A DNA stretch of 64,000 nucleotides from a virus (IMGVR_UViG_3300032237_000561:30594-94593), one strand, 5' to 3'. Shown: positions 25,334 to 62,330, counted from the first letter of the stretch. Notes: generated from the letters alone by a model not told the origin. Program-made: numbers and translations.

Positions 25334-25362
25334 ACGATACATGAGCAACAGCTTGATTGCAA
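25334..25362 (-). promoter_or_regulatory. SigA-type promoter with spacer box
   Basis: TTGCAA-TCAAGCTGTTGCTCATG-TATCGT. Confidence 0.75.
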
Positions 25363-25398
25363 ATCATGTGACAAAAAAACTTCTCTGCCTGGCTTATG

Positions 25399-25427
25399 TT
25401 GACATCATGATGTAGTGAGAGTACCGT
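25399..25427 (+). promoter_or_regulatory. SigA-type promoter with spacer box
   Basis: TTGACA-TCATGATGTAGTGAGAG-TACCGT. Confidence 0.75.
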
Positions 25428-25464
25428 CAATACTGTCACCACCCACCGACCCAAGGAGCACCGC

Positions 25465-25965
25465 ATGACCCGCAGCTACGAGCGCGACGGCAAGCACTAC
25501 GATTTCGCCGTCCTGACCCATCTGGTCGAGACCGGCGAGGCCACCTTCTACGAAGGCCCCTCCATCTACGTCATCAAGACCGAAGACGGCACGGTCGCGG
25601 TCCGCCCCCATCAGGTGATCTTTACCTCGACCCCGGCACCCTTCACCCTGACCCAGGTCGAGGAGATCGCCGCACCCTCACCGATGGACGGCTACTACGG
25701 CCAGGAACGCTACGACGGCGAAGACATCGGCCCGCACGGCGTGGTCTTCCAGGGCGCGCAGGAGCTGGCCGTGAAGTTTCTGGGCGATAACCCGGACGGC
25801 ATCGACCCCCTGGAGATCGTCCGCCGCATCCTCGACGACCAGACCGGCGAGTACACCCGGTTCCTGCAGAACGAGATCGACGGTACTGCGCCCCTCGCCC
25901 GCCGTAGCTCATCCTGGGTCTCGGCGGACGAGGAGGATGAAATCCTGAAGCACTTTGGTATCTGA
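25465..25965 (+). CDS. Hypothetical protein
   Basis: AAGGAG RBS. Confidence 0.8.
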   Translation: MTRSYERDGKHYDFAVLTHLVETGEATFYEGPSIYVIKTEDGTVAVRPHQVIFTSTPAPFTLTQVEEIAAPSPMDGYYGQERYDGEDIGPHGVVFQGAQELAVKFLGDNPDGIDPLEIVRRILDDQTGEYTRFLQNEIDGTAPLARRSSSWVSADEEDEILKHFGI

Positions 25966-26025
25966 GACCGTTTCATGCTACAGTGAGCATGTAGCATCCA
26001 CACACTATCGAAAGGAGCCATCCAC

Positions 26026-26217
26026 ATGGCGAAGAAGACAAACCCCGGCATCGTGATGGCCCCCGCCATGACCCAGGCCCAGCTGCAGAAGCTGCTCGGC
26101 CTGCGGAGCAGCTCTGCTGCCCTGCCCCAGGCCAGCAAGCGCGATCTACTGGGCCGTCGCAACGGCAAGATCGCCCGCCGGAACCGCGCCGAGTCCCTAC
26201 GCCGGGACTCCTGGTAA
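26026..26217 (+). CDS. Small basic hypothetical protein
   Basis: GAAAGGAG RBS. Confidence 0.7.
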   Translation: MAKKTNPGIVMAPAMTQAQLQKLLGLRSSSAALPQASKRDLLGRRNGKIARRNRAESLRRDSW

Positions 26218-26256
26218 AACCAAAAAACTCCACCCACCCACTCAGGAGGAACCCTG

Positions 26257-26496
26257 ATGACGAAGTATCCCAGTAAGGAAGCCCGCGAGATCGTCAAGAT
26301 GGCCCGCAAGCTCGGGTGGGCCTTCATCGGGTACACCGGCACCAATCATCTACTGCTGGTCCACGAGAACGGGAGCCGCTACGTCCTGGCCGCGACCCCC
26401 TCTAGTCACCGGAACCGAGCGAACTCGATCTCCATGCTGGAGAAGCTGGCCGGGTGCAAGCTGCACCCTAAAGGCCGGATGAGACAGGTCAGCTGA
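26257..26496 (+). CDS. hicA: HicA-like toxin/RNase domain protein
   Basis: 79 aa; REIVKMARKLGW...TGTNHLLLVH...ATPSS matches the HicA pattern with its conserved His. Confidence 0.65.
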   Translation: MTKYPSKEAREIVKMARKLGWAFIGYTGTNHLLLVHENGSRYVLAATPSSHRNRANSISMLEKLAGCKLHPKGRMRQVS

Positions 26497-26752
26497 ATTT
26501 CTCCAGGGAATTGACGAAACTCGACCATACGACCTCGTCGTGGCCGTTCTCTCCCGGCGGTCGCGGTCTCCCGGCCTTCATCCAAGCACGATGAGCCTGG
26601 TATCCGCCCGGAATAGTTTTCGTCCAGGGTCGGCGGAAGTATTCGGCCTCGTTGCCTTCATGCAGGATGCCGATGGCCCGCAGAATCATCGCCCACCGCT
26701 CCACACCGCGCTTGACGCGGCGTTCGGATTCGGAGCCGGGTTCAATGGGCAC
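26489..26752 (-). CDS. Hypothetical protein (probably leaderless)
   Basis: GTG at 26752 just after TGGTATAGGAT; reads VPIEPGSESERR... Confidence 0.5.
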   Translation of the reverse strand: MPIEPGSESERRVKRGVERWAMILRAIGILHEGNEAEYFRRPWTKTIPGGYQAHRAWMKAGRPRPPGENGHDEVVWSSFVNSLEKFS

Positions 26753-26872
26753 GGCACCGATCCTATACCACACCGCCCAAGAATCGTTACCCGAAATTTC
26801 ACTGGGTAGTGACGACGAACACATGGGAATAGGTGAGCGGCACCGTGCCGAACGGGATCGAGGTAATCGCCT

Positions 26873-27142
26873 GTGGCTTTGTCCGAGCATTACGAACGAG
26901 CCAATGACAGCCTGGTCAAGCGCACCTGTAAGACCTGTGAGTGGTACAAGACCATGCCACCTCATGAGCAGGACTTCTTCGACGAGAAGGTCCGCGAAGC
27001 CCTCCTGACGCGGGGGAACATGCAGCGTCTGCGTCGGGCCGTCCTTGCCGAAGGTCATGAGGTCGCCCGGTCGACCTTCCACGGCCATGTCCATGAACAT
27101 CATCTGGAACTATCCGCTCAACGGCGGGAAGGAACCCTGTGA
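26873..27142 (+). CDS. Small CxxC...HxxxH protein
   Basis: CKTC and HVHEH; coupled to the phosphoesterase gene. Confidence 0.7.
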   Translation: MALSEHYERANDSLVKRTCKTCEWYKTMPPHEQDFFDEKVREALLTRGNMQRLRRAVLAEGHEVARSTFHGHVHEHHLELSAQRREGTL

Positions 27143-28314
27143 GCCTCGAAGATTCCTGGGACGAAGTCAACGGCACCGATGATCAACATTCCTGGCGGGC
27201 CGACTGGGCCGGTGACGAGGGCACCATCACCACCGGCGCGCTACCGGACGGATTCGACCCCCACGATTTTGACGAGGTCCTGAACCGGCTCGGCTACGCC
27301 CCCGGCGAGGTCCGCATGGAGCTGGTCTCGGCCAGCCGGTGGGAGCAGCGGACCGCCGTCCGGGGCGACGACGGACGTAAGACCGGCGAGATGACTTCGG
27401 TCTACCTCAACGCCTACAAGTACAAGGCCTTGAGAAACGCCTTCATGGTCAATCTCCCGGCTTTATACGCCGCCGTGAAGGCATCCCGGCCCAGTAAGTC
27501 CGAACCCAAGCTCACGGGCCGCTCAGCGGTCGTCTGCTGGGCTGATATCCAGGTGGGGAAGACCGATCACCTGGGGGGCCTGGAGGAGCTGCTTCAACGC
27601 CTGGAGGATAAGCGGGTCGCACTCCAGGCGTGGCTCAAAGAGGAGAAGATCGACCATGTCGTGCTCTGCGATGTCGGCGACATCGTTGAGGGCTTCGAGA
27701 ACGTGTCGTCCCAGACCCGGACCAACTGTTTGAGCCTGATGCAGCAGATCGACACCGCCGCCACCGAGTTCTGGCGCACCATCAAGGTCTGCGAGAAAGC
27801 CGGTCCGGTCGATGTGCTTTCCATCCCGTCCAACCATTGCCAGTGGCGCAAGGGCAAGGGACTGGTCGGTAAACCCGGCGACGACTGGGGGCTGCACATC
27901 TCTCAGCGTCTGGAGCAGCTCAACGAAGAAGCCGGACTTCGGGCAACCTTTCACCGCCCCGATACCGACTGGAACGAGGGGATGACCTTCAAAGTGGGCG
28001 GCGGCATAATCGGCCTGGCTCACGGCCACCAGGCCAGCGGACCTAACGGAATCATCCCCTGGTGGATGAAACAGAAGCACCAGGGTCGGCTGTGCTGCGA
28101 CGTTTTGGTCACCGGACATTTTCACTTCCCCAGCTTCCGGCCCTCCGGTCGCGACCCGGAGACCGGCAAGTCCAGTTACCACATCCAGGCATCTACTCTC
28201 GACAACGGTTCGTCCTGGGTGGCCAACAAGTTTGGTGAAGACGGGGACCCCGCTTTGACAGTTTTTGTGATGGACCAGGATGGTTTCGACGTTCGCAGTT
28301 TCGCGCTACTTTAA
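27139..28314 (+). CDS. Calcineurin-like metallophosphoesterase
   Basis: ADIQ, GDIVEG, SNH, HGH and GHFH motifs. Confidence 0.85.
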   Translation: MSLEDSWDEVNGTDDQHSWRADWAGDEGTITTGALPDGFDPHDFDEVLNRLGYAPGEVRMELVSASRWEQRTAVRGDDGRKTGEMTSVYLNAYKYKALRNAFMVNLPALYAAVKASRPSKSEPKLTGRSAVVCWADIQVGKTDHLGGLEELLQRLEDKRVALQAWLKEEKIDHVVLCDVGDIVEGFENVSSQTRTNCLSLMQQIDTAATEFWRTIKVCEKAGPVDVLSIPSNHCQWRKGKGLVGKPGDDWGLHISQRLEQLNEEAGLRATFHRPDTDWNEGMTFKVGGGIIGLAHGHQASGPNGIIPWWMKQKHQGRLCCDVLVTGHFHFPSFRPSGRDPETGKSSYHIQASTLDNGSSWVANKFGEDGDPALTVFVMDQDGFDVRSFALL

Positions 28315-28327
28315 AGGGGCTGGACAC

Positions 28328-28633
28328 ATGCAGGTGAGGGTCATCAAGTTCTTCGGTCGAGAAGTGCTGAGAATCGAAAACCATTACGAGGCAACGGTTT
28401 CCGATGTCATCAAGGCGATGATTGAGGCACGCGAGGCGACTGAAGAAATTCAGTACGTCTGCGAGTGTAGCTGTGGCGATGAGGAGGACGACGACGAGGA
28501 GGAGAGCGACGAAGAAGGCATTCGAGGCAGGTTCTCTGACATGACCGACCGGATTGTCTGGGATGCCCGAACCGACGACTACCCGCTCCCGTTTTCCAAC
28601 CCCGATAACGAAGAGGACGAGCCTAAACCATAA
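28328..28633 (+). CDS. Acidic hypothetical protein
   Basis: ATG at 28328; D/E run. Confidence 0.6.
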   Translation: MQVRVIKFFGREVLRIENHYEATVSDVIKAMIEAREATEEIQYVCECSCGDEEDDDEEESDEEGIRGRFSDMTDRIVWDARTDDYPLPFSNPDNEEDEPKP

Positions 28634-29126
28634 TTTCGGGTCGTCCCAAGTCGACAATATCGGTGAGTAAATGCAGCTTGACCTGGGGCAGCGCGTGAGT
28701 AGGTCCGTGACCAAGATCAGTAAGTGTTGACTTGTCTAACAGCTCCTGCGCTTCGGCATAGCCGACAAAATTAACAATGTTTTCCCGAACAATCGCCAAG
28801 ATATAAATGTCTGCCGGATTCTGCGCCTTCTTAGGGGTCGCGAGCAGACGACCATCTGTTCGGGTAGTCGCCTTGATGTCGATACGGATACCGTCAATCA
28901 CCGAATCAATGCTTCCGCTACGGGGCTTGACTCCGAAATCTGGATAAGTGTTAGTGGCCTTGCCCCAGGCCATCTCGGCCACCATGCCGGTCATCTCAAG
29001 CTCAATGGCCTGATGGTTTTTGTCAAGCCTCCGGTCGATGACACTCAACGACTGGTTGATACAACGCCGCATAGTCGACATGAAATGAACAACACCCATT
29101 TCGCTGGGATTAAGTTCGACAATCAT
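28623..29126 (-). CDS. Hypothetical protein, possible PD-(D/E)xK nuclease fold; lower GC than neighbours
   Basis: TAATG coupling to the helicase; AE...ID...IDIKAT. Confidence 0.6.
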   Translation of the reverse strand: MIVELNPSEMGVVHFMSTMRRCINQSLSVIDRRLDKNHQAIELEMTGMVAEMAWGKATNTYPDFGVKPRSGSIDSVIDGIRIDIKATTRTDGRLLATPKKAQNPADIYILAIVRENIVNFVGYAEAQELLDKSTLTDLGHGPTHALPQVKLHLLTDIVDLGRPEIMV

Positions 29127-30988
29127 TACGGTGCCTCTCCGAACAACAGCCATTCCAGGTTGTGGTTCTCATCGCGGGTGGAAAGGTCACCATAACTAAG
29201 TTCTTCTTGAGTTCCTTGCACCGCTGCGGCGAGTCGCCGACGATTTTCGCAGGTCTCCCACACCCGCTCCTCGACCGAGTCCTCGGTGATGAGGACGTAA
29301 GCCGTCAGGCCGTCCAGGTGGGAGTCGGCGCGGTCGATGCGGGCGTTGCGTTGGGCCAGGTCGTCATAGCTGTAGGTCGGGTCCACGTTGATCACGTAGC
29401 GGGCCTCTTGCAGGTTCAGGCCGTGGGTCCCGGCATCGCTGGAACAGAAGGCGGTGATGTTGGGGTCGGCTTTGAACCGGTCCTGGGCGCGCTGAGACTC
29501 TTTGGCCGACTGGCCGGTCCCGTAGTGCAGGACGTGCGGCACCGTGAGATGTCGGGCCAGCGGCAGCAGACCCAGCTCGGTCCAGTGGCAGAAGACCACC
29601 GCTTTGTCCTGGCCCTCCCGGATGTCGTCGAGGAGACCGTTAAGGACCTCGATCTTGGAGCTGTGCGCTGCATCGAGTAATTCAGGTCGCTCGGCGAGAA
29701 GCTCGGCGGCTTCAGGAGATGAGCTGTGCCGCAATGCTTCTGGGTTGATGCAGGCGATCCGGGCCATCAGATAGAAGGGGGACAGACCCTCACCGTTGCG
29801 GTGAGCGATCCGGGCCTTGGCGGTGATGAGGTCGAGTAGCTCACGGGTGCCAGGTGTCGCCTGGACCGAAACCTCCAGTGTCTCAATGCCTTTAAACTGT
29901 TCCCGAACTCCGGGGTCGGTCTTGCGGACCGCCATCGTCCGGTCCCCGACCCGGTGTCGGACCTCTTGGAGCTTGGTGAGGTTCCAGTCGTAGGTGGTGA
30001 AGGAGAACTGCCCGCCGCTCTTGGTCCGTACCGGGACGCTGTTGACCCGGTCGGCGTAGCGGGAGATGAAGTCGGTCTTGGTCGACAGCGGGTTGCGGGC
30101 CGGGCGACCGTCGAGGGAAAAGACATCCCTGAATCTCAGCGGATTGCCGCCGACGACGGTCGCCGACATCGGCCACACGGTGGCGGTACAGGCGGCGGTC
30201 AGCCGGTCCAGGGCCATCCTGGCCTTGTTCTGCCCGTTGTCGGTAATCAACTTGTGACCCTCGTCGAGGACCCACAAGACACGACGACCGAAGGTCAGGG
30301 CGGCGATCTCCTCCTCGTCGTGCCACAACTTTTCGTAATTCATGACAAAAACCTGGTGCGGATCGTCATACCCCTTACGACGCTTGGCCTTGGTCCCGTC
30401 GTTGATCACCGCATCCAGACCGGCGGGGTTGACGAAGGTCCGGCGCAGGTTTTCCTTGAGCTTGCTCAGGGTGCAGGCGATGACGAGGTCGATGTCGTCG
30501 GAGTCGAAGAGGGCCTTGGCGGCGGCACCGGAAGTGAAACTCTTTCCGGCACCGGCAGACCAATTCCAGAAGTACAGCCGGTCGGGGCTTTCGGTGCCCT
30601 GACGGGCACGCTCCAGGGCACGATTGAGGGAGAAGGTCTGAAAGGGCCGGAGCGTGTATCCCTCGATCTCCAGGGGCTGTGACCAGCGTTCTATATCAGA
30701 TTGGATATGAGCGGTCGAGGGGGTCCAGAAGACGTGGTAGCCGTCCTGGCCCAGGAGGTCGGTGAATCGACGAGCGAGGTGAACCTCGTTGAGGATCAGG
30801 TGACGGGACATCCAGTCCTCGTAGGAGCCGTAGAACAGTCCCCGAGCGGTCGCATCGAGCGGCTCAAAGCTCAGGTATCCGGGGTAGTCGGGGTGTTCCT
30901 CGACAAGGATGATCCGGGCCGGTGGGATGCCCGAGTCCAAAAGGTCGGCGACGCGCTTCTCCACGTCATCCAGGGTGGGTAACGACAT
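29126..30988 (-). CDS. SF2 (SNF2-like) helicase
   Basis: AGAGKS, DEGH, SAT and GLNLQ...QRNARIDR motifs. Confidence 0.9.
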   Translation of the reverse strand: MSLPTLDDVEKRVADLLDSGIPPARIILVEEHPDYPGYLSFEPLDATARGLFYGSYEDWMSRHLILNEVHLARRFTDLLGQDGYHVFWTPSTAHIQSDIERWSQPLEIEGYTLRPFQTFSLNRALERARQGTESPDRLYFWNWSAGAGKSFTSGAAAKALFDSDDIDLVIACTLSKLKENLRRTFVNPAGLDAVINDGTKAKRRKGYDDPHQVFVMNYEKLWHDEEEIAALTFGRRVLWVLDEGHKLITDNGQNKARMALDRLTAACTATVWPMSATVVGGNPLRFRDVFSLDGRPARNPLSTKTDFISRYADRVNSVPVRTKSGGQFSFTTYDWNLTKLQEVRHRVGDRTMAVRKTDPGVREQFKGIETLEVSVQATPGTRELLDLITAKARIAHRNGEGLSPFYLMARIACINPEALRHSSSPEAAELLAERPELLDAAHSSKIEVLNGLLDDIREGQDKAVVFCHWTELGLLPLARHLTVPHVLHYGTGQSAKESQRAQDRFKADPNITAFCSSDAGTHGLNLQEARYVINVDPTYSYDDLAQRNARIDRADSHLDGLTAYVLITEDSVEERVWETCENRRRLAAAVQGTQEELSYGDLSTRDENHNLEWLLFGEAP

Positions 30989-31008
30989 GATGTGTAGAGA
31001 CTACAGGA

Positions 31009-31782
31009 TCAGAACGGGTATCCATAGCGACTGGCGGTGATGTGATCGTCACGAAGCCCGTGATCCATGATCGGGTTCCAGTCATTTCCGTAATGACTGA
31101 AGTCGTCGGACTCTTCGGCGTTGTGCGGCACTCTGAGGTCTCGTATTGTCAGCGGGGCCTTCTTATGCTTGAGCATGACTTCGTACTCGTGGTTGAAGTT
31201 TCCAGACCCGGCACGGTTGTGGTTTTCACCGGCATGATTCCAGTCGGCATCAAGGAAGGTCGGCAAGTACCGCCCGTACCCGGAAGAGTTGTATGACCCT
31301 TCCCCGATCCCTCGACCGTAATTGTCGGCAACATCAAAGTCGGTACTCCAATGCTCCCCGGTGCCGCCCTTGGCCCTGAAACCGTCCAGAATTGCGTCGG
31401 CCAGTCCGGGGTGGTCGAACTCGCCGCCCCGGTCGTCGTAACGGATGTCAGCATCGGGGAACAGTCCAGGGTCATCGACCGGCTGGCCCTGGCCGTAGGT
31501 CATCTGCCAGACCTTGCGGAAAGCCGGGTCGTGAGTGTCAATGGGAACGCCGCGCATCAGGCGACCGACCTCACCCTTGACCTTTTCCATACCGGGAAGG
31601 GTCGGCTGGGGTAGCCGTTCTTTGCCGGAAAACTCAGAGTTTTTGGGACGAGATGCCCACTCGGCTTGGGCACCCGGATCGCCCTTGATTTTCTTCTCGT
31701 AATTTTTACGATCCCTGGTCGGGCCATGAGTCCACGGCCCCAGCATTTCTGCTTGCTCGCGGGCGGTGATGATGCGGCGCAT
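31009..31782 (-). CDS. Putative ADP-ribosyltransferase (R-S-E clade)
   Basis: LMRG, HWSTD and HEYEV occur in the canonical order; GGAGG RBS. Confidence 0.6.
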   Translation of the reverse strand: MRRIITAREQAEMLGPWTHGPTRDRKNYEKKIKGDPGAQAEWASRPKNSEFSGKERLPQPTLPGMEKVKGEVGRLMRGVPIDTHDPAFRKVWQMTYGQGQPVDDPGLFPDADIRYDDRGGEFDHPGLADAILDGFRAKGGTGEHWSTDFDVADNYGRGIGEGSYNSSGYGRYLPTFLDADWNHAGENHNRAGSGNFNHEYEVMLKHKKAPLTIRDLRVPHNAEESDDFSHYGNDWNPIMDHGLRDDHITASRYGYPF

Positions 31783-31838
31783 GAAACGACCTCCTGCTGA
31801 TTCAAGGCGGTCATGGCCGACACGGCAGGGGGAGGGTG

Positions 31839-31867
31839 TTGCACCCCGAATGACACGGGTGTAACTT
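31839..31867 (+). promoter_or_regulatory. SigA-type promoter
   Basis: TTGCAC-17 nt-TAACTT. Confidence 0.6.
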
Positions 31868-31872
31868 GTGGC

Positions 31873-32290
31873 GAAGGCCCCCGACTACAAGAGCCGAGGG
31901 CCTTCACAACTTAATAAAAAACATCCACCAGAGATTTTACCTCACACTCTAAACTGGGTCAAACCCCCAGTCATCTCCCGAGGTCTCCGGTTAACAGCCG
32001 GAAGCAAGAGCCGTCAGAGGGTGTGTCCCTCCGACCCGCCACCCGGCAGCGTTCAAGGCAGACCCGGCGTGCAAGTACCCACGAGGTGGCGGGATATGTC
32101 CGGTTCTGCGGCAGGCGAGTAATACCCGTAGCCGACAGTGACGCGACGACCCTGCGGGCAGTGAAATACCATAAGGAACCCCAGGACTCGGTAAACGGAC
32201 GGGGGTCATTCCCTGTTGTTTCGCGGTGCTGTTCCTGCTAGTGCAGGGACAGCTCTGCTCTCCCCTTCCTGGTGCCGGATCAGGGGATGA
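31873..32290 (+). ncRNA. Candidate large structured RNA
   Basis: Eight consecutive helices found by eye; no credible ORF; promoter directly upstream. Confidence 0.55.
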
Positions 32291-32331
32291 AAAGACCAAA
32301 GAAACATCAGAGATGCTGTAGTGTGACCCAC

Positions 32332-32715: not shown

Positions 32716-32781
32716 TTTGACTTTGTCTGGGCTATAGCTTATTCTGGTGATACCACCCACTGAGACGAAAGAAGTGATCAC

Positions 32782-33510: not shown

Positions 33511-33513
33511 CAG

Positions 33514-34122
33514 ATGAACGACAGCGACACTATTGTCGAGGTCGTGGATCACACTACTGATCGCCCCGTTTTTAGCGAACGGGGCGATCAGCCTGTCCAC
33601 GCCGAAGAAGACGAAAAACCCACCAAGCCGAAGAAGCCCCGTAAGCGTAGGAACCCCCGCGCCGCTGATGAGATGAGCGACGAGGAGCTACTCCGCGATG
33701 CCGGGGTCGAGCCGATCTTCTCGACTTCTGAGGCGGCGGAATTCTTCGACCGGAGTAACCAATGGCTTTACTGGGGTCTCCGGGAGCAGGTCTTCACCGA
33801 GGCCGACGGGACCCCCATCGACCCAGACCGGATCGGTCACCCGGTACGCGGTCGGCGGCGTTTCACGATCCCGTTGCTCCGGGAGATCATGAAGTCGAGC
33901 TACCGACGGGGCAACCTCGACAGCGAGCAGCTGACGACCATCATGCGCCGGATCAAGTTCGCCGAGCAGGGCGTGGAGTGGCGCGAACGGGAGGGCTGGA
34001 ATTACACCCACCTGGGCCGTAACCGGTACCGGTGGCTCAAGCCCGAGATGACGGTCTGGAACTCCAAAGCCGGGGAGTGGAACCTGCACCCCGACGTGAA
34101 GCTCCGTAGCCACACCGACTGA
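33514..34122 (+). CDS. HTH DNA-binding protein (MerR/excisionase-like)
   Basis: FSTSEAAEFFDRSNQWLYW...GRRRFT. Confidence 0.7.
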   Translation: MNDSDTIVEVVDHTTDRPVFSERGDQPVHAEEDEKPTKPKKPRKRRNPRAADEMSDEELLRDAGVEPIFSTSEAAEFFDRSNQWLYWGLREQVFTEADGTPIDPDRIGHPVRGRRRFTIPLLREIMKSSYRRGNLDSEQLTTIMRRIKFAEQGVEWREREGWNYTHLGRNRYRWLKPEMTVWNSKAGEWNLHPDVKLRSHTD

Positions 34123-35279: not shown

Positions 35280-35313
35280 ACCAGGTCAACCGAGTCGGGA
35301 GAGTCCAGAAGTC

Positions 35314-35742: not shown

Positions 35743-35763
35743 TTTCCCCCGTCATGGGTTATA

Positions 35764-35781: not shown

Positions 35782-35807
35782 GATATGGCGAAAGAGGTTG
35801 GAGATAC

Positions 35808-49173: not shown

Positions 49174-49192
49174 ACCCACCAGGAGGACGACG

Positions 49193-54396: not shown

Positions 54397-54457
54397 TTCC
54401 CTGTGGTGTAGTCTCTGTCACGCCCGGACAAAGACCGCCCACAGAAATGGAGCACCA

Positions 54458-55471: not shown

Positions 55472-55474
55472 ACG

Positions 55475-55936
55475 ATGGAGATCGGTAAGACCGCCGAAAT
55501 CAAGGAGCTGTACGAGACCGAGAAGGTCACCCTGACCGAGATTGGCAGGGTGATGCGGACCCGATACGCGAACTCCGGCCTGTCCACGCCCAAGGAGGAA
55601 GTCGACCGGCGCAACCGCTACGCCAAGGAATTGCGTGAGCGATGCGCCGAGGCTGGTTTCGTTGCCGATGTGGAATGGGTCTGGGCATCCGACGAGAAGG
55701 ATGCCGATGACATCCCGTTGCGTCAGTCGCCGTGCGTATCTGACAACCCCGACGACCAGAATCTCTACTACATCCCCCGACTGATCATCTCTGGCCGGAC
55801 CGACGCACTCAGGGAGTACGACCACGACCGTCAGACCCACGAGGTCCGCCAGGGCGCGTTCGACGGCATCAAGGGTGTTATCGACCCGAACACCGGAACC
55901 CTTAAAGAAGACTCCAAGAAAAAGGACATTTACTGA
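55475..55936 (+). CDS. Hypothetical protein
   Basis: GGAGG RBS. Confidence 0.8.
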   Translation: MEIGKTAEIKELYETEKVTLTEIGRVMRTRYANSGLSTPKEEVDRRNRYAKELRERCAEAGFVADVEWVWASDEKDADDIPLRQSPCVSDNPDDQNLYYIPRLIISGRTDALREYDHDRQTHEVRQGAFDGIKGVIDPNTGTLKEDSKKKDIY

Positions 55937-56349
55937 TGGCTGATATGCCGAAAAAGGCTACCGCACAATCGTTTTCGGCGGGGATGAACACCGAAACGGG
56001 ATTGTCTCCGCTGCACTGGAACGATAAGTGTTTCCTCTGCAACATCGAAATCGGTGAGACCGAACCGCGCCAGTTCTACCAAGGCAAAGCGGCAATGATG
56101 TTGTGCCACACCGGTTGCCTGAACGTCATGAACACCAACGGCGGCAAGCCAATTGATTACCACCGAGCAATGGGAGATGGTGTTGTCGCTTCGGCTGGCC
56201 TGGACCCCAGCTCTCCGGCCTACTCCGGTCCTGGTTGGTTGGAGTTCCCGGACCTGACCGAGATGCAAACCTACCTATCCGCTAAGGGCGCGATCCCGAC
56301 CCACGTCAAGGTGACAGTCGCTGGGGCTGTGATCCAGGCGGGAGAATGA
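55936..56349 (+). CDS. Hypothetical protein with CxxC...HxxC
   Basis: TGATG coupling. Confidence 0.75.
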   Translation: MADMPKKATAQSFSAGMNTETGLSPLHWNDKCFLCNIEIGETEPRQFYQGKAAMMLCHTGCLNVMNTNGGKPIDYHRAMGDGVVASAGLDPSSPAYSGPGWLEFPDLTEMQTYLSAKGAIPTHVKVTVAGAVIQAGE

Positions 56350-56519
56350 GGGGCGGGGGGACCCGGACCGGGTTCGAGTCACGTTCGGTCAGTAAGGCCA
56401 GCCGACGGCGGCGTGATCGTTATACCCGTGACGCGGCCCGCGACCCGTGGGGCAGCAAGCGCAAACTGATGCTCGACGACAAGGATCGCGATGACGATGA
56501 GGTTGACACCGCGTGCTGA
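56346..56519 (+). CDS. 57-aa charged peptide (not in the ORF track)
   Basis: ATGA overlap with the upstream stop; open to TGA at 56519. Confidence 0.45.
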   Translation: MRGGGTRTGFESRSVSKASRRRRDRYTRDAARDPWGSKRKLMLDDKDRDDDEVDTAC

Positions 56520-56796
56520 GATCGACATTCAGGGCACCCTGGTGGGATTCCTGCGTCGCGACATCCGACAGATCAGCGACCAGGAGCGAGAACTGGTCGA
56601 CCGGCTGGTGGACAGTCAGCAACGGGAAGCTGGAGTGGGCAGCCGCGTCACCCGCATTGTCATTGAAACCGACTACCCCGACCCCGACCGCCTGGCTTAC
56701 ACCGCCAGCTTCCGGGTCGAAGTCAACGGAGAGGACCCTGATGCCCCCGCCGAAGCCAATGAAGGTGATGGTTGCGGCCAGCATGATGGACGCTGA
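56491..56796 (+). CDS. Hypothetical protein
   Basis: Codon bias consistent with neighbours. Confidence 0.6.
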   Translation: MTMRLTPRAEIDIQGTLVGFLRRDIRQISDQERELVDRLVDSQQREAGVGSRVTRIVIETDYPDPDRLAYTASFRVEVNGEDPDAPAEANEGDGCGQHDGR

Positions 56797-57010
56797 GATC
56801 GTCAAAGAGCATTGCCCTAAGTATCACTTCCATGCCGTGCTAACCCCTGACCGCATGTTGTCGGGGTTCACCGCCTCTGATTACGTCTGGACACCCGAAG
56901 CCAGCGAACTTCCCGCCTCGGTTCGTTTCCGGTTACGCGGGATGCTGTCATCACTGATCGGTCCAGATTCTGTCGAAGAAGAATTCTCTCCGACCCTGTT
57001 GTCCTGGTGA
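56783..57010 (+). CDS. Hypothetical protein
   Basis: 3' part of ORF 56513..57010. Confidence 0.5.
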   Translation: MMDAEIVKEHCPKYHFHAVLTPDRMLSGFTASDYVWTPEASELPASVRFRLRGMLSSLIGPDSVEEEFSPTLLSW

Positions 57011-57064
57011 TCACTGTCACGAAGGGGTGAACAGTTATCCGTTCACGAGAGAAGGCCCAGAGTC

Positions 57065-57178
57065 ATGGCGGTGGCGAAGACGATTCTGATGATTGCCGGT
57101 TGCTCTCTCCTCGTGACCGGGGTCTGGTTTGGCGTGGTGTATTTCGGGGTCTCCGAGTTTTCCCGGATGGTGGACTGA
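57065..57178 (+). CDS. 37-aa single-TM peptide (not in the ORF track)
   Basis: MAVAKTILMIAGCSLLVTGVWFGVVYFGVSEFSRMVD; AGAAGG RBS; TGATG coupling. Confidence 0.6.
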   Translation: MAVAKTILMIAGCSLLVTGVWFGVVYFGVSEFSRMVD

Positions 57179-57315
57179 TGGGCGAGTATCCGGCTCTATC
57201 CGATGATGACATCGAGGTCATTGCCCGCCAGCTCAAGGGGCGGATGCCGAGCAACATCTTCTTGCGCCATGTCACCATCACTACCGACGACTTCGAGACG
57301 GTGAGTTCGACATGA
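57178..57315 (+). CDS. Small hypothetical protein
   Basis: Coupled on both sides. Confidence 0.55.
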   Translation: MGEYPALSDDDIEVIARQLKGRMPSNIFLRHVTITTDDFETVSST

Positions 57316-57653
57316 TTGAAGCGAGGGCATTCGGAAAATCCTGGTGGTGTCATGGTGGCGGGGCAGCGACCCTGATCCTCATGATTGTCGTCAGCGTCTT
57401 CCGGGCACCTCGCGATCTGATCTTCTGGGCGGCGGTGGCCTTCTTCGCCGGGCATACCGCGATGGCCGTCCGCCGTTACCTCATCGAACGCGCGGCCCGC
57501 GCCACCGCGACGGTGACCCGCCACCACCAGACCCACACCGCCACTAATGGCGGCGGTGGGATCATCTTCACCCCGCGTCCGGCCACCAGCATCCTGGTTC
57601 CGTTGAAAATTAACGGCAATTCACTCCCGCAGCAAACAAAAAACCACCTCTGA
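57312..57653 (+). CDS. Membrane protein (two hydrophobic segments)
   Basis: ATGA overlap; LILMIVVSVF and LIFWAAVAFFAG. Confidence 0.6.
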   Translation: MIEARAFGKSWWCHGGGAATLILMIVVSVFRAPRDLIFWAAVAFFAGHTAMAVRRYLIERAARATATVTRHHQTHTATNGGGGIIFTPRPATSILVPLKINGNSLPQQTKNHL

Positions 57654-57741
57654 CCAGTCATGACTTCCGGGTGGCTAAAACTCGGCATGGTATACTGATG
57701 ATGTAGCACCCACCCACACCCACCACCCCGGAGGTATCCGC

Positions 57742-58032
57742 ATGAACCAAAAAAGACGCTTCAAATCCGACTGGACCCCCTCGATCCTGCGCGAGTTCGA
57801 GGTCTCCTCGACCGGCAAGACTTACAAGCTCCAGGCCGGAATGTGGGTCTCTGTGACCCGCCGACCCGGTCTGATGGCCGGACAGTACGAGGTCCTCTAT
57901 GCCGAACGGACCTCCGACGGGACGCTCCTCATCACCGCCGACGGCCCCCTGAGCCGTGAGCGTCGCCGTAAAACCATCCGCGAGACCGACATCAAGACCG
58001 TGCACGTCAAGACGCGCCCGAAGGGGGATTAG
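57742..58032 (+). CDS. Hypothetical protein
   Basis: GGAGGT RBS; TATACT -10 at 57691. Confidence 0.8.
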   Translation: MNQKRRFKSDWTPSILREFEVSSTGKTYKLQAGMWVSVTRRPGLMAGQYEVLYAERTSDGTLLITADGPLSRERRRKTIRETDIKTVHVKTRPKGD

Positions 58033-58041
58033 TCCCCCGGC

Positions 58042-58070
58042 TTGTGTTCATCCTGTAGCTCGTGTATTGT
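58042..58070 (+). promoter_or_regulatory. SigA-type promoter with spacer box
   Basis: TTGTGT-TCATCCTGTAGCTCGTG-TATTGT. Confidence 0.7.
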
Positions 58071-58105
58071 CGTAGACACACCACCCATCTACGAGAGGCA
58101 CGATC

Positions 58106-58267
58106 ATGACGAAGCAGTACACGACCCGCAACCTGACCGCCGACGAGACCGAGACCCTGATGCGGGAACTCCGTTTGGTCACCGGCGGCAAGACCGATCT
58201 GATCAACTCGGTGCTTCGCGTGTTCGCCGACCAGGGCCTCGGCATCTTCGTCGCCGAAGCCAAGTAA
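58106..58267 (+). CDS. 53-aa hypothetical protein (not in the ORF track)
   Basis: GAGAGG RBS; MTKQYTTRNLTADE... Confidence 0.7.
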   Translation: MTKQYTTRNLTADETETLMRELRLVTGGKTDLINSVLRVFADQGLGIFVAEAK

Positions 58268-58308
58268 CCCACCACCCACCACCCACCCACTACAGGAAGG
58301 CACGACCC

Positions 58309-58545
58309 GTGTCCAAGACCCCCGCCTACGCCCAGGCCAAGAAGATCACCTCGATGTCGGGCGCGAGAGCGACCCAAAAGCACATCGGCACCTTGCAGCG
58401 GACCCAGATGATCCTGCTCGCTCAGGGCGACGAGGCCAGCCGCCAGGCGGCGATGGTGATCGGCATGACCATCCAGAACTACCGCACCGAACTGCGGGCG
58501 TTCTACGACTCCGATGCCTACCCGTACCGGATCGTCGCCAGCTAG
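58309..58545 (+). CDS. Hypothetical protein
   Basis: AGGAAGG RBS; GTG start. Confidence 0.7.
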   Translation: MSKTPAYAQAKKITSMSGARATQKHIGTLQRTQMILLAQGDEASRQAAMVIGMTIQNYRTELRAFYDSDAYPYRIVAS

Positions 58546-58586
58546 TCCCCTCCACCCATCCACCCACCCGCAGGAAGGCACCACCC

Positions 58587-58931
58587 ATGACCGCACCGAG
58601 CATCACCCACATCGAGGCCATGAAGGCCAAGGCCGTCGCCACCCTGGCCCGCCAGGACAGCGTCACCGCCACCCCCGACCAGATCGAGTTCATCAAGTTC
58701 GAGGGCGTACTGGAGGACATCGGCGAAGGCCGGACCTATCTGTCCACCAACCTCGCCGGGCAGTACCTCATCGTCCGCGACGGTGAGACCGTCCTGGCCA
58801 TCTACAAGGTCCAGCTCCGGTTCGGTTCGCCCAAGGCCGTCCGGGACGAGCACGGGATCGTCAACTACGTCGTCGACTCGATGTCGTTCGGACTCAAGCG
58901 GGTCAAGCGCGCCCCAAAGGGACTCATCTGA
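58587..58931 (+). CDS. Hypothetical protein
   Basis: AGGAAGG RBS. Confidence 0.8.
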   Translation: MTAPSITHIEAMKAKAVATLARQDSVTATPDQIEFIKFEGVLEDIGEGRTYLSTNLAGQYLIVRDGETVLAIYKVQLRFGSPKAVRDEHGIVNYVVDSMSFGLKRVKRAPKGLI

Positions 58932-58947
58932 TGGCCACCTAACCTGG

Positions 58948-58976
58948 TTGCAATCAAGCTGTAGACCAGGTATCGT
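58948..58976 (+). promoter_or_regulatory. SigA-type promoter with spacer box
   Basis: TTGCAA-TCAAGCTGTAGACCAGG-TATCGT. Confidence 0.8.
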
Positions 58977-59015
58977 CCCGGACACAACCCCACCCACCCA
59001 CTGAAAGTAGGAGCA

Positions 59016-59309
59016 ATGCCCCACCTCGATGATCTCGACGCGAAGCTGATCAAACTGGCCCGCGCTGCCGCCGGTCACGCCGGTGCCCTAGGCGCGCGTG
59101 GCACGACGTTCAATGACGAGCTGCTGGCCGACGACGGTTCACGGGTCGCCATCACCGTCACCGTCACGGCGGTCGTCCACAGCACCGTCAGCCCGGCGGG
59201 CCTGTGGCGGATCACCGCCGCCAGCGACCCGGCCCTCGACGGCATGACCTTCATCCAGGCCGCGCTGCCGGGCCGGTCCACCTCGCATGCCGTTGAGGTG
59301 TCAGCATGA
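59016..59309 (+). CDS. Hypothetical protein
   Basis: AGGAG RBS. Confidence 0.7.
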   Translation: MPHLDDLDAKLIKLARAAAGHAGALGARGTTFNDELLADDGSRVAITVTVTAVVHSTVSPAGLWRITAASDPALDGMTFIQAALPGRSTSHAVEVSA

Positions 59310-59578
59310 TCACCCGCGTCAACCGCGACGAAGAGCTGGAGACCCTGGCCGTTCAGGCCGAGGCTGTCGCCGACGGACTCCATCGGATGATCGGCGAGCT
59401 GCGCGATCTGGCTGACCGGATGCTGTCGCTGGAACTCATCGACGACATGGGCGGCGACCGGGGATACAACTGGTCCCTGCAGTCCGATCTGGCCGGTGCT
59501 CAGGGCTTCGTCTACTCGACCTCCGTTAAGGCCCGCCAGGTGTCCCGGCACGCCCGTTACGGGAAGACCGACCAGTGA
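59306..59578 (+). CDS. Hypothetical protein
   Basis: ATGA coupling. Confidence 0.7.
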   Translation: MITRVNRDEELETLAVQAEAVADGLHRMIGELRDLADRMLSLELIDDMGGDRGYNWSLQSDLAGAQGFVYSTSVKARQVSRHARYGKTDQ

Positions 59579-59838
59579 CCCGCGCTCTTGCCCTCCTGGG
59601 GGCCGTATTGGCCGCTGTGGGCCTCGCTACGGGCGTGTACGCCCCGTCGGCGGGTGCACTGCCCGGCCAGTGCTGGAATAGCCCCTTCGGCGGCTACTGC
59701 GACACCGCCCCGATGTCGGACGGCAGCTTCCAGCACTGCCTGAGTTTCGGCGGATCGTCGTTCTGCACGCAGGCCTGCCACGACCCGGCCAGCAATCAGG
59801 CTCTGCCCACCGACATGGACCCCAACACCCCCTGCTGA
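59575..59838 (+). CDS. Small secreted Cys-rich protein (mycobacterial CDGP-like)
   Basis: Signal peptide ending APSAGA; GGYCDTAPMSDGSFQHC; six Cys. Confidence 0.7.
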   Translation: MTRALALLGAVLAAVGLATGVYAPSAGALPGQCWNSPFGGYCDTAPMSDGSFQHCLSFGGSSFCTQACHDPASNQALPTDMDPNTPC

Positions 59839-59849
59839 GAAGGAGCAGA

Positions 59850-60098
59850 ATGACCACCTCTACCCACACCGTCACGCCGAGCGTGACAAAGCTGTTCCAG
59901 CGCAAAGGCGTGGCTGGGCAGTTCGCTGTCCAGTGCACGGTTACCTACCCTGGCGAGGAGCCGCGCACCATAGAATTCGTCGGCTCCTCCTACGGCGGGC
60001 CGGTGCTCATGGTGACCGAAACCAGCGAGACCTGGGTCACCGAGCCTGGCCGGTTTGGCAAGTTTGGCAAGGGCTGGGTTCGGCGGTTCTTCGAGTGA
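59850..60098 (+). CDS. Hypothetical protein
   Basis: AAGGAG RBS. Confidence 0.75.
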   Translation: MTTSTHTVTPSVTKLFQRKGVAGQFAVQCTVTYPGEEPRTIEFVGSSYGGPVLMVTETSETWVTEPGRFGKFGKGWVRRFFE

Positions 60099-60436
60099 GC
60101 GAGCTGGAGAACTCGGCTCGCGCTCGTGTGCGCTCGGTCCATCGCCCGTCGGCGAAGCACGACATCACCGGCACCGTCCGTAGGTCGATCACCAATTGGG
60201 GGTTCGCCCACTACATCAAGCTGAGTCAGCCCCCCGGCCAACGGTGCTGGATGTGCTATGACTGCTATGGGCCTACTGACGACATCCTGCCCGACAGCTC
60301 GTTCCTCACCGATGAGGAAATGGATGCCCGCAACGATACCCAGGTGGTCTACGTCCCGATGGACGACGATGCCTGGGCGCACATGCATGGCCTCAACCCC
60401 AATCCCAACATCGAAGACAAGGACGAAATCGTATGA
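60095..60436 (+). CDS. Hypothetical protein
   Basis: GTGA coupling; CWMC. Confidence 0.6.
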   Translation: MSELENSARARVRSVHRPSAKHDITGTVRRSITNWGFAHYIKLSQPPGQRCWMCYDCYGPTDDILPDSSFLTDEEMDARNDTQVVYVPMDDDAWAHMHGLNPNPNIEDKDEIV

Positions 60437-60618
60437 GCCGCAACACAATTAGCCAAGCCGAGATGCGCCGCCGCAGCAAGCAGGCCGAGATTCTCATCAC
60501 CGCCGCCCACACCCTCCGGCACTTCGGTCGATTCGAGCTGTCCGATGAGGTCAACCATTTGGCCGAGCAGGTCCGTACCGGGAAAGCCTTGCCGGACAAG
60601 AACACTGGGGAAAGCTGA
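60433..60618 (+). CDS. Hypothetical protein
   Basis: ATGA coupling. Confidence 0.65.
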   Translation: MSRNTISQAEMRRRSKQAEILITAAHTLRHFGRFELSDEVNHLAEQVRTGKALPDKNTGES

Positions 60619-60842
60619 TGGAATTCGAGGAGTGGCTGCGGATCGGCATGGAGAAGGGGTGGTGCGGCCCGGCGGTCTGTCAGACCCATGACGGGACCCC
60701 GACCACCGAGGCAGAGGACGAGGAGTTCGAGGAAGGCGACCCCTGCCTGCACATCATTCGTCTTTACGCCGATGAGACCACCCGTGAGGGTGTCGAGCGC
60801 AACCACGCGCCGTCCGTCTGGCGACGCACCAATATGGGCTGA
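60618..60842 (+). CDS. Hypothetical protein
   Basis: TGATG coupling; CQTHDG...GDPC. Confidence 0.75.
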   Translation: MEFEEWLRIGMEKGWCGPAVCQTHDGTPTTEAEDEEFEEGDPCLHIIRLYADETTREGVERNHAPSVWRRTNMG

Positions 60843-60843
60843 T

Positions 60844-60873
60844 TTGCGTTTCATGCTGTAGTGCGCGTAACAT
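60844..60873 (+). promoter_or_regulatory. SigA-type promoter with spacer box
   Basis: TTGCGT-T-TCATGCTGTAGTGCGCG-TAACAT. Confidence 0.7.
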
Positions 60874-60907
60874 GAATCGCAACCACCACCACAGGAAGCG
60901 AGAACAC

Positions 60908-61084
60908 ATGATGGCACTCATCATCGGCGCGACCGTCTATGTCAAAGACGACGACGGCAAGAAGCACGAGGCCACCATCACGGGCATCACCAAGCTCTTC
61001 GGCCCGTTCCGCACCTACGAGGTCGTCATCGAGGACAGCGGCCAGATTCTCAACCTCATGCCCGAGTCCCTCACCAACGCCTGA
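60908..61084 (+). CDS. Small SH3-like hypothetical protein
   Basis: AGGAAG RBS. Confidence 0.7.
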   Translation: MMALIIGATVYVKDDDGKKHEATITGITKLFGPFRTYEVVIEDSGQILNLMPESLTNA

Positions 61085-61122
61085 CCACCACCCACCGATC
61101 CACCCACCCGAAGGAGAAACCC

Positions 61123-61443
61123 ATGAGCGACAAGCTCTATGTCGTCCGCCTGACCAACGGCGGCTCGATCCAGTGCACCATCGAGGCCAAGGCCCGTGCG
61201 GCCTTCGCCAAGAATCCCGGCTCGACGTTGGGCTGGCAGCCATTCCCGTCGCCGGTGAAGATGCCGTGGATTGACGGCGGCGACTACACCTTCGCGCCCG
61301 CCTTCGATGGCGACGGCGTGGTGGCCACCTACACCCCGCTGGGCGTGTCCGGCTGGGGCGACGACGCGGGCGAGGCGTACTCGGCCATGCTCCGGGCGAT
61401 CCGGGCGCACCTGGAGCGCGAGACCGAGACGGTGATCGCGTGA
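61123..61443 (+). CDS. Hypothetical protein
   Basis: GAAGGAG RBS. Confidence 0.75.
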   Translation: MSDKLYVVRLTNGGSIQCTIEAKARAAFAKNPGSTLGWQPFPSPVKMPWIDGGDYTFAPAFDGDGVVATYTPLGVSGWGDDAGEAYSAMLRAIRAHLERETETVIA

Positions 61444-61712
61444 AGACTCCCCGCTACACCTTCGACCCGATTGCCAGCAACAACCTGAACGGCAGTTTCA
61501 CCGTGAGCCGCCGCAACGAGATCACCGGGTACTACACCACCTGGTACGTCGAGCCGGATTCGACCAGCTCCACCGGCTGGCGCATCTGGCGACCCACGCC
61601 GTCCAACCGCCCGATGGTTATCACGCCCACCGGCTCGCTGGGCCGTCGTATCCTGGCCATCGTGACCGCGACCCAGGCCCGATTTAGTGATCAAGCTGTA
61701 GGGGGTGTATAG
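61440..61712 (+). CDS. Hypothetical protein
   Basis: GTGA coupling. Confidence 0.65.
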   Translation: MKTPRYTFDPIASNNLNGSFTVSRRNEITGYYTTWYVEPDSTSSTGWRIWRPTPSNRPMVITPTGSLGRRILAIVTATQARFSDQAVGGV

Positions 61713-61713
61713 T
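61685..61713 (+). promoter_or_regulatory. Promoter with spacer box driving a leaderless mRNA
   Basis: TAGTGA-TCAAGCTGTAGGGGGTG-TATAGT; ATG 7 nt downstream. Confidence 0.7.
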
Positions 61714-61720
61714 GAGTACC

Positions 61721-61954
61721 ATGACCACTTCCACGATCACCGTCACCAACGGCAAGACCCACACAGGCGACGACCCGCTCGAAATGCAGGTCGCTCTCCA
61801 GATGCTCGTCTCCGAGATCATGTTCGACGTGGACTGGACCGCCGAGGTCGTCCTCGCCGCGATCCTGGCCCAGCACGAGCTGCTCCGGGGCATCGACACC
61901 GAGCGGGTCAAGGCGACCCTCCGCGACGGCCTGAGCTTCCGGTCCATCGCGTGA
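61721..61954 (+). CDS. Hypothetical protein
   Basis: Leaderless ATG at 61721. Confidence 0.7.
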   Translation: MTTSTITVTNGKTHTGDDPLEMQVALQMLVSEIMFDVDWTAEVVLAAILAQHELLRGIDTERVKATLRDGLSFRSIA

Positions 61955-62304
61955 CCGAGCCGTCGTTGCCGGACCCACGGCAGCCTAGGGTCGTTTATCA
62001 GCCGCCCCTGGTGGATCACATCCATGCCGCCCTCACATGGGCCTACCGGGCCTCTCAGGCGGTCGGATCGCCTCGGTTTGTGGAGACCATCCGGCGGGCC
62101 TCGTTTTACTTCGCTCGCGCCGCCAGCCACGCCCATACGCCCGGCGAGGAGGCGGTCGTCTCCGGTCTCCAGTCAATGATTGATGGATTGGTCACCGCCG
62201 ACGCGGCGGGCCGTTACCTGCTGGCCGGTTCGGTCTCAGGCATGGATGCCGTCGAGGCATGCGAGTTCATTGAGATGATCGAGGCCGGGGAGAACCCGGA
62301 GTAG
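61951..62304 (+). CDS. Hypothetical protein
   Basis: GTGA coupling. Confidence 0.6.
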   Translation: MTEPSLPDPRQPRVVYQPPLVDHIHAALTWAYRASQAVGSPRFVETIRRASFYFARAASHAHTPGEEAVVSGLQSMIDGLVTADAAGRYLLAGSVSGMDAVEACEFIEMIEAGENPE

Positions 62305-62330
62305 ACATCAAGCTGTAGTACCTGTATCGT
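62302..62330 (+). promoter_or_regulatory. SigA-type promoter with spacer box
   Basis: TAGACA-TCAAGCTGTAGTACCTG-TATCGT. Confidence 0.8.

Follow-up and report, generated by a model that had tools for sequence, protein, structure and literature searches.

The DNA analysed here (IMGVR_UViG_3300032237_000561:30594-94593; 64,000 nucleotides, called the window below and numbered from its first letter) forms the final 64 kb of a virus record of 94.6 kb in IMG/VR (G000), which has a CheckV completeness of 62%. Between positions 25,334 and 62,330 of the window we found seven promoter-like sites that share an 11-bp box, located at a fixed position between a -35-like hexamer and a TANNNT -10 hexamer. Two of them form a divergent pair at 25.3-25.4 kb, and the other five lie at 58-62.3 kb (Table 1).

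Seven promoters with a common spacer box

The pattern TCAWSMTGTWG matches the window exactly seven times, at 25356(-), 25405, 58048, 58954, 60851, 61691 and 62308, whereas shuffled sequences had 0.27 matches on average and 2 at most, an enrichment that is inflated by the pattern having been built from these seven sites. We could not find any further copy of this pattern in the whole 94.6-kb record. With a 29-nt position weight matrix (PWM), the seven sites scored 30-41 bits (12.6-33 bits in leave-one-out scoring), against 12.8 bits for the next best site in the record and 19.7 bits for the best shuffle. Both the pattern and the PWM confirmed the seven positions of the original prediction, in each of which the box starts 17 nt before TANNNT. 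All seven sites follow a single register (hexamer, box, 6 nt, TANNNT), and the -10 hexamer was present in 7/7 when located from the box alone. As for the -35-like hexamers, which had been placed directly before the box, this arrangement holds at six sites and fails at 60851, where TTGCGT lies one base further upstream and yields an 18-nt spacer. TTG-type -35 hexamers at 16-18 nt from the -10 are recognized in five of the seven sites, TAGTGA and TAGACA being weak. In every one of the seven, the base immediately before the -10 is a G, and GACAC occurs near +1 at 58048, 58954 and 62308, in line with the three copies noted before.

All seven promoters point toward the genes that follow. These genes are small, and a Pfam search of those downstream of the seven promoters gave no family above threshold. 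The earlier description of the sites as heads of small-gene cassettes of unknown function was borne out. At 25356(-) and 61691 the -10 is followed 7 nt later by an in-frame ATG, and the mRNAs of these two promoters are predicted to be leaderless; the other five promoters are followed by a CA-rich leader and a Shine-Dalgarno sequence. The A/T tract between the -35 hexamers of the divergent pair may be an UP-like element serving both promoters.

The box is missing from at least one promoter-like site of the window: at 32717-32745, TTGACT-17-TATTCT precedes gene 32782, has a CCACCCAC leader but no TCA box, and its spacer contains CTATAG in another register, 2 nt before the -10. The best sub-threshold PWM match (12.8 bits) is located at G000:C1:20081-20115, 10.5 kb before the window start, and reads ATAACCTGTAG-CTTAGT-TATAGT-GTGC-TATAGT. 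It resembles the class B promoters of phage Myrna described below (CTGTAG-N6-TATAGT, no TTG), plus a second TATAGT.

The virus and its relatives

Based on PHROG matches, the record contains a replication module with a DnaE-type polymerase, DnaB, DnaC, a primase, a UvsX-like recombinase and a Cas4-like exonuclease, as well as a run of families numbered 27xx-29xx. Searches by tblastn linked it to cluster C mycobacteriophages such as Myrna, ScoobyDoobyDoo and Rizal; Myrna (G002 here) is a cultured phage of cluster C2 and belongs to the Ceeclamvirinae. At the nucleotide level, megablast and blastn searches of GenBank phages recovered no relative, whether the query was the right arm, the divergent region or one 78-nt cassette. 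The public sequencing runs matching this DNA comprise only the source metagenome, no RNA run being listed.

Relatives were recovered from IMG/VR by pattern scans and protein-anchored searches, the exact-variant pattern scans yielding mostly chance single matches that were filtered by PWM. Six contigs carry the same box: G005 (16.9 kb), G001 (42 kb, with replication genes about 72% identical to those of the window record), G006, G007 and G008 (all three from the second pattern scan), and G009, which is 150.1 kb long, 97% complete and colinear with the window genome at 66-82% nucleotide identity. G007 was examined over a fetched stretch of 40 kb that includes the locus syntenic with the divergent pair of the window. 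No TCA box was found in Myrna, G003 or G004. A tblastx comparison of G005 with the window genome gave noise only, and the box promoters are the sole nucleotide similarity between the window and G005. Profile searches for an integrase (PF00589, PF00239) found no match in G000 (62% complete), G001, G006, G007 or Myrna. Because of the PHROG and tblastn links and the lack of an integrase match, the virus is identified as an uncultured, Ceeclamvirinae-like (cluster-C/Myrna-like) myovirus of an actinobacterial host, whose lifestyle is probably lytic.

Copies in both orientations

When a relaxed pattern was applied to 371 kb in seven contigs (window record included), 37 direct and 13 inverted copies were found, against 0.6 and 0.3 in shuffles. 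The total is a lower bound of at least 50 copies, of which about 43 are in the relatives. Generalized over the copies, the element reads TC(A/G)NN(C/A)T(G/A)TAG; it is asymmetric, measures 11 bp and occupies about -29 to -19. It has no dyad, and only its CTRYAG core is pseudo-palindromic. TANNNT follows the direct box at a fixed gap of 6 nt, the -35 can shift by 1 nt, and position -13 is a G or C in nearly all copies. Of the 50 copies, 38 have a TTG -35 at a distance of 17-18 nt from the -10, and those of G008 show a perfect TTGACA-17-TATAAT. In 16/50 an A/GTG that opens the downstream open reading frame (ORF) lies 6-7 nt after the -10 (binomial 1.5e-8), which implies leaderless mRNAs; about a third of the messages would thus be leaderless, with a predicted start site 6-8 nt after the -10.

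Every copy sits in a promoter spacer and points in the direction of the genes after it, and the few box-only matches in the relatives do not resemble stoperators. The 52 nt upstream of the copies fold with a median of -18.7 kcal/mol, against -15.5 kcal/mol in random windows (p = 7e-4), although a strong upstream hairpin is present in only about half of the copies, which thus form composite terminator-promoter modules.

The 13 inverted copies surfaced when the box was searched without requiring a -10; they are antisense matches in G005, G006 and G009, and on the sense strand each of them falls within an otherwise normal promoter. The order there is a terminator hairpin, TTG(C/T)G, CTAYAGnnnGA, 5-8 nt and TAnnnT, after which come either a leaderless ATG 7 nt on or a CA-rich leader with a Shine-Dalgarno sequence. 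The inverted 11-mer lies at about -30 to -20, and the inversion shifts the CTRTAG core by 6 bp.

Conservation of the box

Over the copies, the information content is 18.6 bits for the box, 4.0 bits for the -35 hexamer and 2.7 bits for the 6-nt gap, values that are inflated because the relatives were gathered with patterns including the box and TA...T. This collection bias leaves unaffected both the seven window sites and a comparison of eight orthologous promoter pairs, which were defined by flanking genes: 58048, 60851, 61691, 25405 and 25356 versus G009, the divergent pair versus G007, and 58048 versus G001. In these pairs identity was 80% for the box and 77% for the -10, compared with 56% for the -35 zone, 42% for the 6-nt gap, 33% for the discriminator and 28% for the upstream DNA. 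Such a profile indicates purifying selection on the box. The original view of the sites as SigA-type promoters with a selected, non-random spacer element, which would mark a co-regulated set of non-structural small-gene cassettes, is supported.

Analogous promoters of Myrna

Two classes of promoters that had previously been undescribed were recognized in Myrna. Class A (TTGCRn...TCTAG-N5-TAnnnT) has 12 copies, most of them with an ATG after 6 nt (leaderless), and two of these copies occupy positions orthologous to 25405 and 58048 of the window. Class B (CTRTAG-N6-TATAGT) has seven copies and no -35. TATAG-N6-TATAGT occurs in G003 and G004 as well. Since a TNTAG core 5-6 nt before the -10 is also found in the promoters of Myrna, G003 and G004, this core near -20 is old in the group, and the TCA half is specific to the lineage of the window. 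Myrna thus resembles the box lineage in phage group, cassette layout, TNTAG core, leaderless ATG, CCACCCACC leader motif and two orthologous positions, but differs from it in lacking the TCA half and in having two promoter classes instead.

Arrangement of promoters, leaders and genes

In G009, the copies cluster in a small-gene region of about 24 kb that wraps around the contig ends, with the addition of one divergent pair between the tail/lysis and replication modules; the structural and replication modules contain no copy. The window is laid out in the same way, and its promoters 58048, 60851 and 61691 are conserved in G009, with partly unrelated genes between them.

Table 1. Box promoters of the window with their starts, downstream genes and orthologues, and the promoter classes of Myrna
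Feature	Position	Strand	Elements and starts	Orthologues and related sites
Leftward box promoter, 25356(-)	25324..25362	-	-35 TTGCAA 25362-25357; box TCAAGCTGTTG 25356-25346; -10 TATCGT 25339-25334	G007; G009
ATG of 104-aa winged helix-turn-helix (wHTH) gene 25012-25326	25326-25324	-	7 nt after -10; predicted leaderless	
Inter-promoter segment of divergent pair	25363..25398	.	A/T tract GTGACAAAAAAAC between two -35 hexamers	conserved in G007
Rightward box promoter, 25405	25399..25467	+	-35 TTGACA 25399-25404; box TCATGATGTAG 25405-25415; -10 TACCGT 25422-25427	G007; G009 47150(-); Myrna 20167 (class A, ahead of gp51)
Leader of promoter 25405		+	CA-rich, CACCACCCACC + AAGGAG; ATG 25465 (gene 25465-25965)	
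Terminator-like hairpin	58023-58038	+	before promoter 58048	
Box promoter 58048	58023..58108	+	-35 TTGTGT 58042-58047; box TCATCCTGTAG 58048-58058; -10 TATTGT 58065-58070	G001 32084(-); G009 15391(-); Myrna 133407; G005 6865-6912 (94% identity over 48 nt)
Genes after promoter 58048		+	leader; ATG 58106 (53-aa gene), then 58309-58545, 58587-58931	
Box promoter 58954	58948..59018	+	-35 TTGCAA; box TCAAGCTGTAG 58954-58964; -10 TATCGT 58971-58976	
Genes after promoter 58954		+	leader; ATG 59016; cassette 59016-60098 and beyond	
Box promoter 60851, 18-nt spacer	60844..60913	+	-35 TTGCGT 60844-60849; box TCATGCTGTAG 60851-60861; -10 TAACAT 60868-60873	G009 11735(-); subtype TGCGTT-box-TGCGCG-TAAnnT also in G005, G006
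Start after promoter 60851		+	leader; ATG 60908/60911	
Box promoter 61691	61685..61723	+	weak -35 TAGTGA; box TCAAGCTGTAG 61691-61701; -10 TATAGT 61708-61713	G009 10355(-), likewise leaderless, 7-nt gap
77-aa gene, predicted leaderless	61721-61954	+	ATG 61721, 7 nt after -10 of promoter 61691	
Box promoter 62308	62302..62371	+	-35-like TAGACA; box TCAAGCTGTAG 62308-62318; -10 TATCGT 62325-62330	
Leader of promoter 62308		+	CACCACCCACC + AGGAG; ATG 62369 (cassette 62369-63967)	
Myrna (G002) class A promoters	2997, 4592, 4929, 9329, 11803, 13344, 20167, 52013, 56684, 57029, 133407, 134634	+		
Myrna (G002) class B promoters	21111, 23375, 25793, 32964, 103912, 123148, 157148	+		

The CCACCCACC motif accounts for the downstream similarity among the cassettes; it also precedes ribosome-binding sites (RBSs) of internal genes and occurs in Myrna, and is not part of the promoter unit. 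A CCACCCAC(C) motif is found 5-15 nt before the RBS of many non-structural genes, including intra-operon ones (in the window at 24755(-), 26230, 32753, 41573, 57710, 58270, 58560, 61086, 62688, 63265 and others). It is also present in Myrna, G005, G006 and G009, occurs independently of the box promoters, and resembles a translation or leader signal.

With respect to the neighbouring genes, a basic 96-aa protein (57742-58032) that belongs to no Pfam family shows 71%, 61% and 56% identity in G001, G009 and Myrna, respectively, and its gene lies directly upstream of the orthologous promoter in all four genomes including the window. The 79-aa protein of 26257-26496 gave a HicA-toxin Pfam match below threshold (E 2e-4, 21.9 bits versus a cut-off of 27) and matches phrog_2089. 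After the 77-aa gene, 61930-62301 shows 52% identity by tblastn with a 163-aa protein of G009, and because of this match the real gene there would be longer than the 51-aa ORF at 62024-62179. In the relatives, genes for LysA (M23 + amidase), a LysB-like protein and the large terminase follow small-gene cassettes in L077 (G005) at 11404-14628, in L212 (G008) at 3693-6234 and in G001 at 21521-26729. The missing part of the 62%-complete window record probably holds LysA, LysB-like and terminase genes and further box promoters.

Candidate regulators

Two proteins of the window had been proposed as readers of the box, and neither was upheld. The first, the 104-aa product of 25012-25326 (P0001) adjoining the divergent pair, indeed folds as a wHTH protein: its predicted fold has a predicted local distance difference test (pLDDT) value of 83, and its best fold matches are all MarR/PadR-type winged helices (E 0.01-0.1). 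Its homologues exist only in a few metagenomic fragments, and a related-locus search of metagenome and genome contigs with a P0001 alignment gave no match. G009, which is 97% complete and carries 16 or more box promoters, lacks the protein, as does the 40-kb stretch of G007, in which the syntenic locus is covered. This absence rules it out as a conserved reader of the box, and the wHTH gene is unlikely to encode the binder.

The second, the MerR-like helix-turn-helix protein of 33514-34122, belongs to DUF7229/phrog_3092 and is conserved from the window phage to Myrna, although its MerR-family fold matches are only weak (E 0.04-0.5, template-modelling (TM) score about 0.24). SNQWLYWGLR, its putative recognition helix, stays the same in lineages that have another box or in which none was found. 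The helix does not co-vary with the box and so gives no link between DUF7229 and this box in particular; its constancy neither supports nor excludes DUF7229 as the reader.

Among other families, MerR_1 (PF13411) and HTH_17 (PF12728) gave no match at E <= 1 in the record, WYL (PF13280) gave none in G000, G009, G001, G005 or G006, and the sigma factor profiles Sigma70_r2 and Sigma70_r4 gave none in G000, G001 or G005. A tblastn search of the phage collection with protein P0011 produced no match. Myrna gp64, annotated as DNA-binding and with a weak match to sigma region 4, was dropped as the binder, having no homologue in the box lineage. An 89-aa Cys/His-rich protein (26873-27142) with CxxC and HGHVHEHH is 81-94% identical in G007 and G009; it was not found in Myrna, has no family match, and the ESM Atlas was uninformative. 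This protein fits the distribution of the box lineage and could be DNA-binding.

Interpretation

We propose that the seven sites are members of a clade-wide family of phage promoters that would be read by the host housekeeping (SigA-type) RNA polymerase and that stand at the head of small non-structural gene cassettes in uncultured, Ceeclamvirinae-like lytic myoviruses. The 11-mer would be the operator of one phage-encoded, sequence-specific DNA-binding protein switching the whole set together, and the bound protein would occlude the spacer, shutting off strong promoters once the early phase ends; an early timing of the boxed promoters is plausible. That a protein of some kind binds the box seems likely, and for the narrower reading, in which the box is the operator of a phage protein acting as a repressor, the chances appear about even. 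The operator idea, already part of the original prediction, gains support from the 13 inverted copies in the relatives. A trans-acting protein is favoured because the box is selected and used in two orientations, because the same 11-mer lies inverted in the spacer, which a fixed polymerase contact would not tolerate, and because the box holds its spacing from the -10 when the -35 shifts by 1 nt. Repression is favoured over activation because many of the promoters are near-consensus TTGACA/TATAAT (as in G008) and, with optimal 17-18-nt spacers, would need no help.

Several points weigh against such an operator. No binder was found among the profile searches (sigma, MerR_1, HTH_17 and WYL) and the two named candidates, and the recognition helix of DUF7229 is indifferent to the box. 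Some box promoters of the relatives have lysin and terminase genes downstream of them, so that "early" is not secure. The information content carries the inflation stated above, and part of the similarity may come from cassette exchange, because promoter subtypes share whole 30-50-nt stretches across phages. Furthermore, the early promoters of T4 and T5 are reportedly conserved beyond the hexamers, in extra blocks, without a dedicated factor.

The T4 and T5 case would suit a box that acts in cis only, tuning promoter strength via DNA shape or via contacts with the host RNA polymerase, RbpA or CarD, and so would the fixed gap to the -10, the nearly invariant G or C at -13, the shorter TNTAG core shared with Myrna, G003 and G004, and the lack of a binder. 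We consider this unlikely: the 6-bp shift of the CTRTAG core in the 13 inverted copies hardly agrees with a fixed polymerase contact, shape effects usually need far less than 18.6 bits (albeit an inflated figure) of mixed-composition sequence, and other promoter-like sites in the same genome do without the box.

It is likewise unlikely that the box is instead the site of an activator or co-activator working with SigA, whether PafBC-like, T4 MotA box-like or MerR-like on the far face of the spacer. A TTG -35 is present in 38/50 copies and is under selection (56% versus about 30% identity in the flanks), whereas PafBC promoters have no -35; the G008 copies are perfect; the spacers are already optimal at 17-18 nt, unlike those of MerR promoters; an asymmetric site is used in both orientations; and no WYL, MerR_1 or HTH_17 profile matched. 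These findings outweigh the position of the box (-29 to -19), which overlaps that of the PafBC -26 element (-23 to -28; PMC8635444), the poor -35 of some copies (TAGTGA, TAGACA), the complete lack of a -35 in Myrna class B (CTRTAG-N6-TATAGT) and the weak MerR-like fold of DUF7229.

The two remaining explanations are very improbable. In one, box and TANNNT together would be recognized not by host SigA but by a sigma factor or an RNA polymerase of the phage. The box does hold more information than the -35, and CTATAG loosely recalls T7/SP6-type promoter cores, but the TTG -35 and TANNNT are canonical and spaced 17-18 nt, the leaderless starts fit a start site after TANNNT and not after the box, inverted copies exist, and Sigma70_r2/Sigma70_r4 gave no match in the three genomes named above. 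The other, raised in the original prediction and rejected here, is recent duplication or gene conversion of one cassette, mobile in the manner of the promoter-early stem-loop (PeSL) cassettes discussed below, with no selection on the box: stretches of 45-80 nt shared by promoter subtypes between otherwise unalignable phages, and cassette contents swapped between conserved promoters, would agree with it, but in genomes 66-82% identical overall the box and -10 are conserved at 77-80% while gap, discriminator and upstream DNA remain at 28-42% (gap and discriminator at 33-42%), and the similarity of the CA-rich leaders belongs to a separate motif that also stands ahead of internal genes.

If the operator reading is carried further, the box might point to a new kind of regulator, probably small and monomeric, that reads an 11-bp word either way in at least 16 host-type promoters per genome and so times the host-takeover genes of a widespread, mostly uncultured actinophage clade; this we regard as possible, though somewhat doubtful. 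Were it true, the TCTAG/CTRTAG spacer words of cultured Myrna-like phages would be its experimentally accessible counterpart. How transcription is controlled in the large lytic cluster-C-type mycobacteriophages appears to be uncharted, a literature search having found nothing. A compact, portable module consisting of a SigA-type core and an 11-bp switch word would explain the timing of many small takeover genes; it exists in leaderless and leadered versions and would point to a new spacer-binding regulator. Mycobacterial genetics could also gain orthogonal, switchable promoters from it. The comparative set assembled here comprises 50 promoters, eight orthologous pairs and the inverted copies, and the cultured Myrna makes the idea testable in Mycobacterium smegmatis.

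Comparison with known systems

A full-text literature search for the box words returned only unrelated primer matches, and nothing was found in the literature on cluster C promoters and Bxz1. Given the leaderless geometry, the -35 elements and the inverted copies, four other readings of the element were abandoned: dyad symmetry, a direct repeat with the -10, a sigma-54-like -24/-12 promoter and a T7-like promoter.

The spacers of MerR promoters measure 19-20 bp, and their operators are dyad-symmetric. The box resembles MerR operators in lying between the -35 and the -10, but the spacers here are 17-18 bp, the box is asymmetric and without a dyad, and neither MerR_1 nor HTH_17 matched in the record, so that the analogy with MerR-family regulators drawn in the original prediction does not hold. 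In the temperate mycobacteriophage L5, the repressor gp71 is said to bind asymmetric 13-bp operators and stoperators, and at Pleft to overlap the -35 and spacer of a SigA-type early promoter. The stoperators of L5 lie mostly outside promoters, in one orientation, and block elongation. As in L5, a short asymmetric site is repeated through a mycobacteriophage-type genome (7 here, at least 16 in G009); unlike in L5, all strict copies of the window record are in promoter spacers, both orientations occur in the relatives, and no integrase profile matched in G000 (62% complete), G001, G006, G007 or Myrna.

The PafBC promoters of mycobacteria combine a -26 element (-23 to -28) with a canonical -10 and no -35, an arrangement termed "sigma adaptation" (PMC8635444), and their activator contains a WYL domain. 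Like these, the box promoters have a specific element (at -29 to -19) at a fixed distance from a SigA-type TANNNT, which would define a regulon in an actinobacterial setting. They differ in the TTG -35 of 38/50 copies, in an unrelated sequence, in the use of both orientations, in the repression favoured here and in that no phage WYL-domain protein was found in G000, G009, G001, G005 or G006.

Of the known systems, the nearest is the early promoter-terminator cassette, the PeSL of T4-type phages (PMC2839356, PMC4122927). The conserved part here is a discrete 11-bp spacer box in both orientations, not a whole promoter plus stem-loop, and a strong upstream hairpin accompanies only about half of the copies; moreover, the hosts are actinobacterial instead of Gram-negative, the genomes are high in G+C, and about a third of the messages would be leaderless. 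In common with PeSLs, however, terminator-plus-promoter modules are repeated before small groups of ORFans where the genome of a large lytic myovirus is plastic, and the relatives keep the modules and swap the genes between them, so that the modules are the sole nucleotide similarity of otherwise unrelated stretches.

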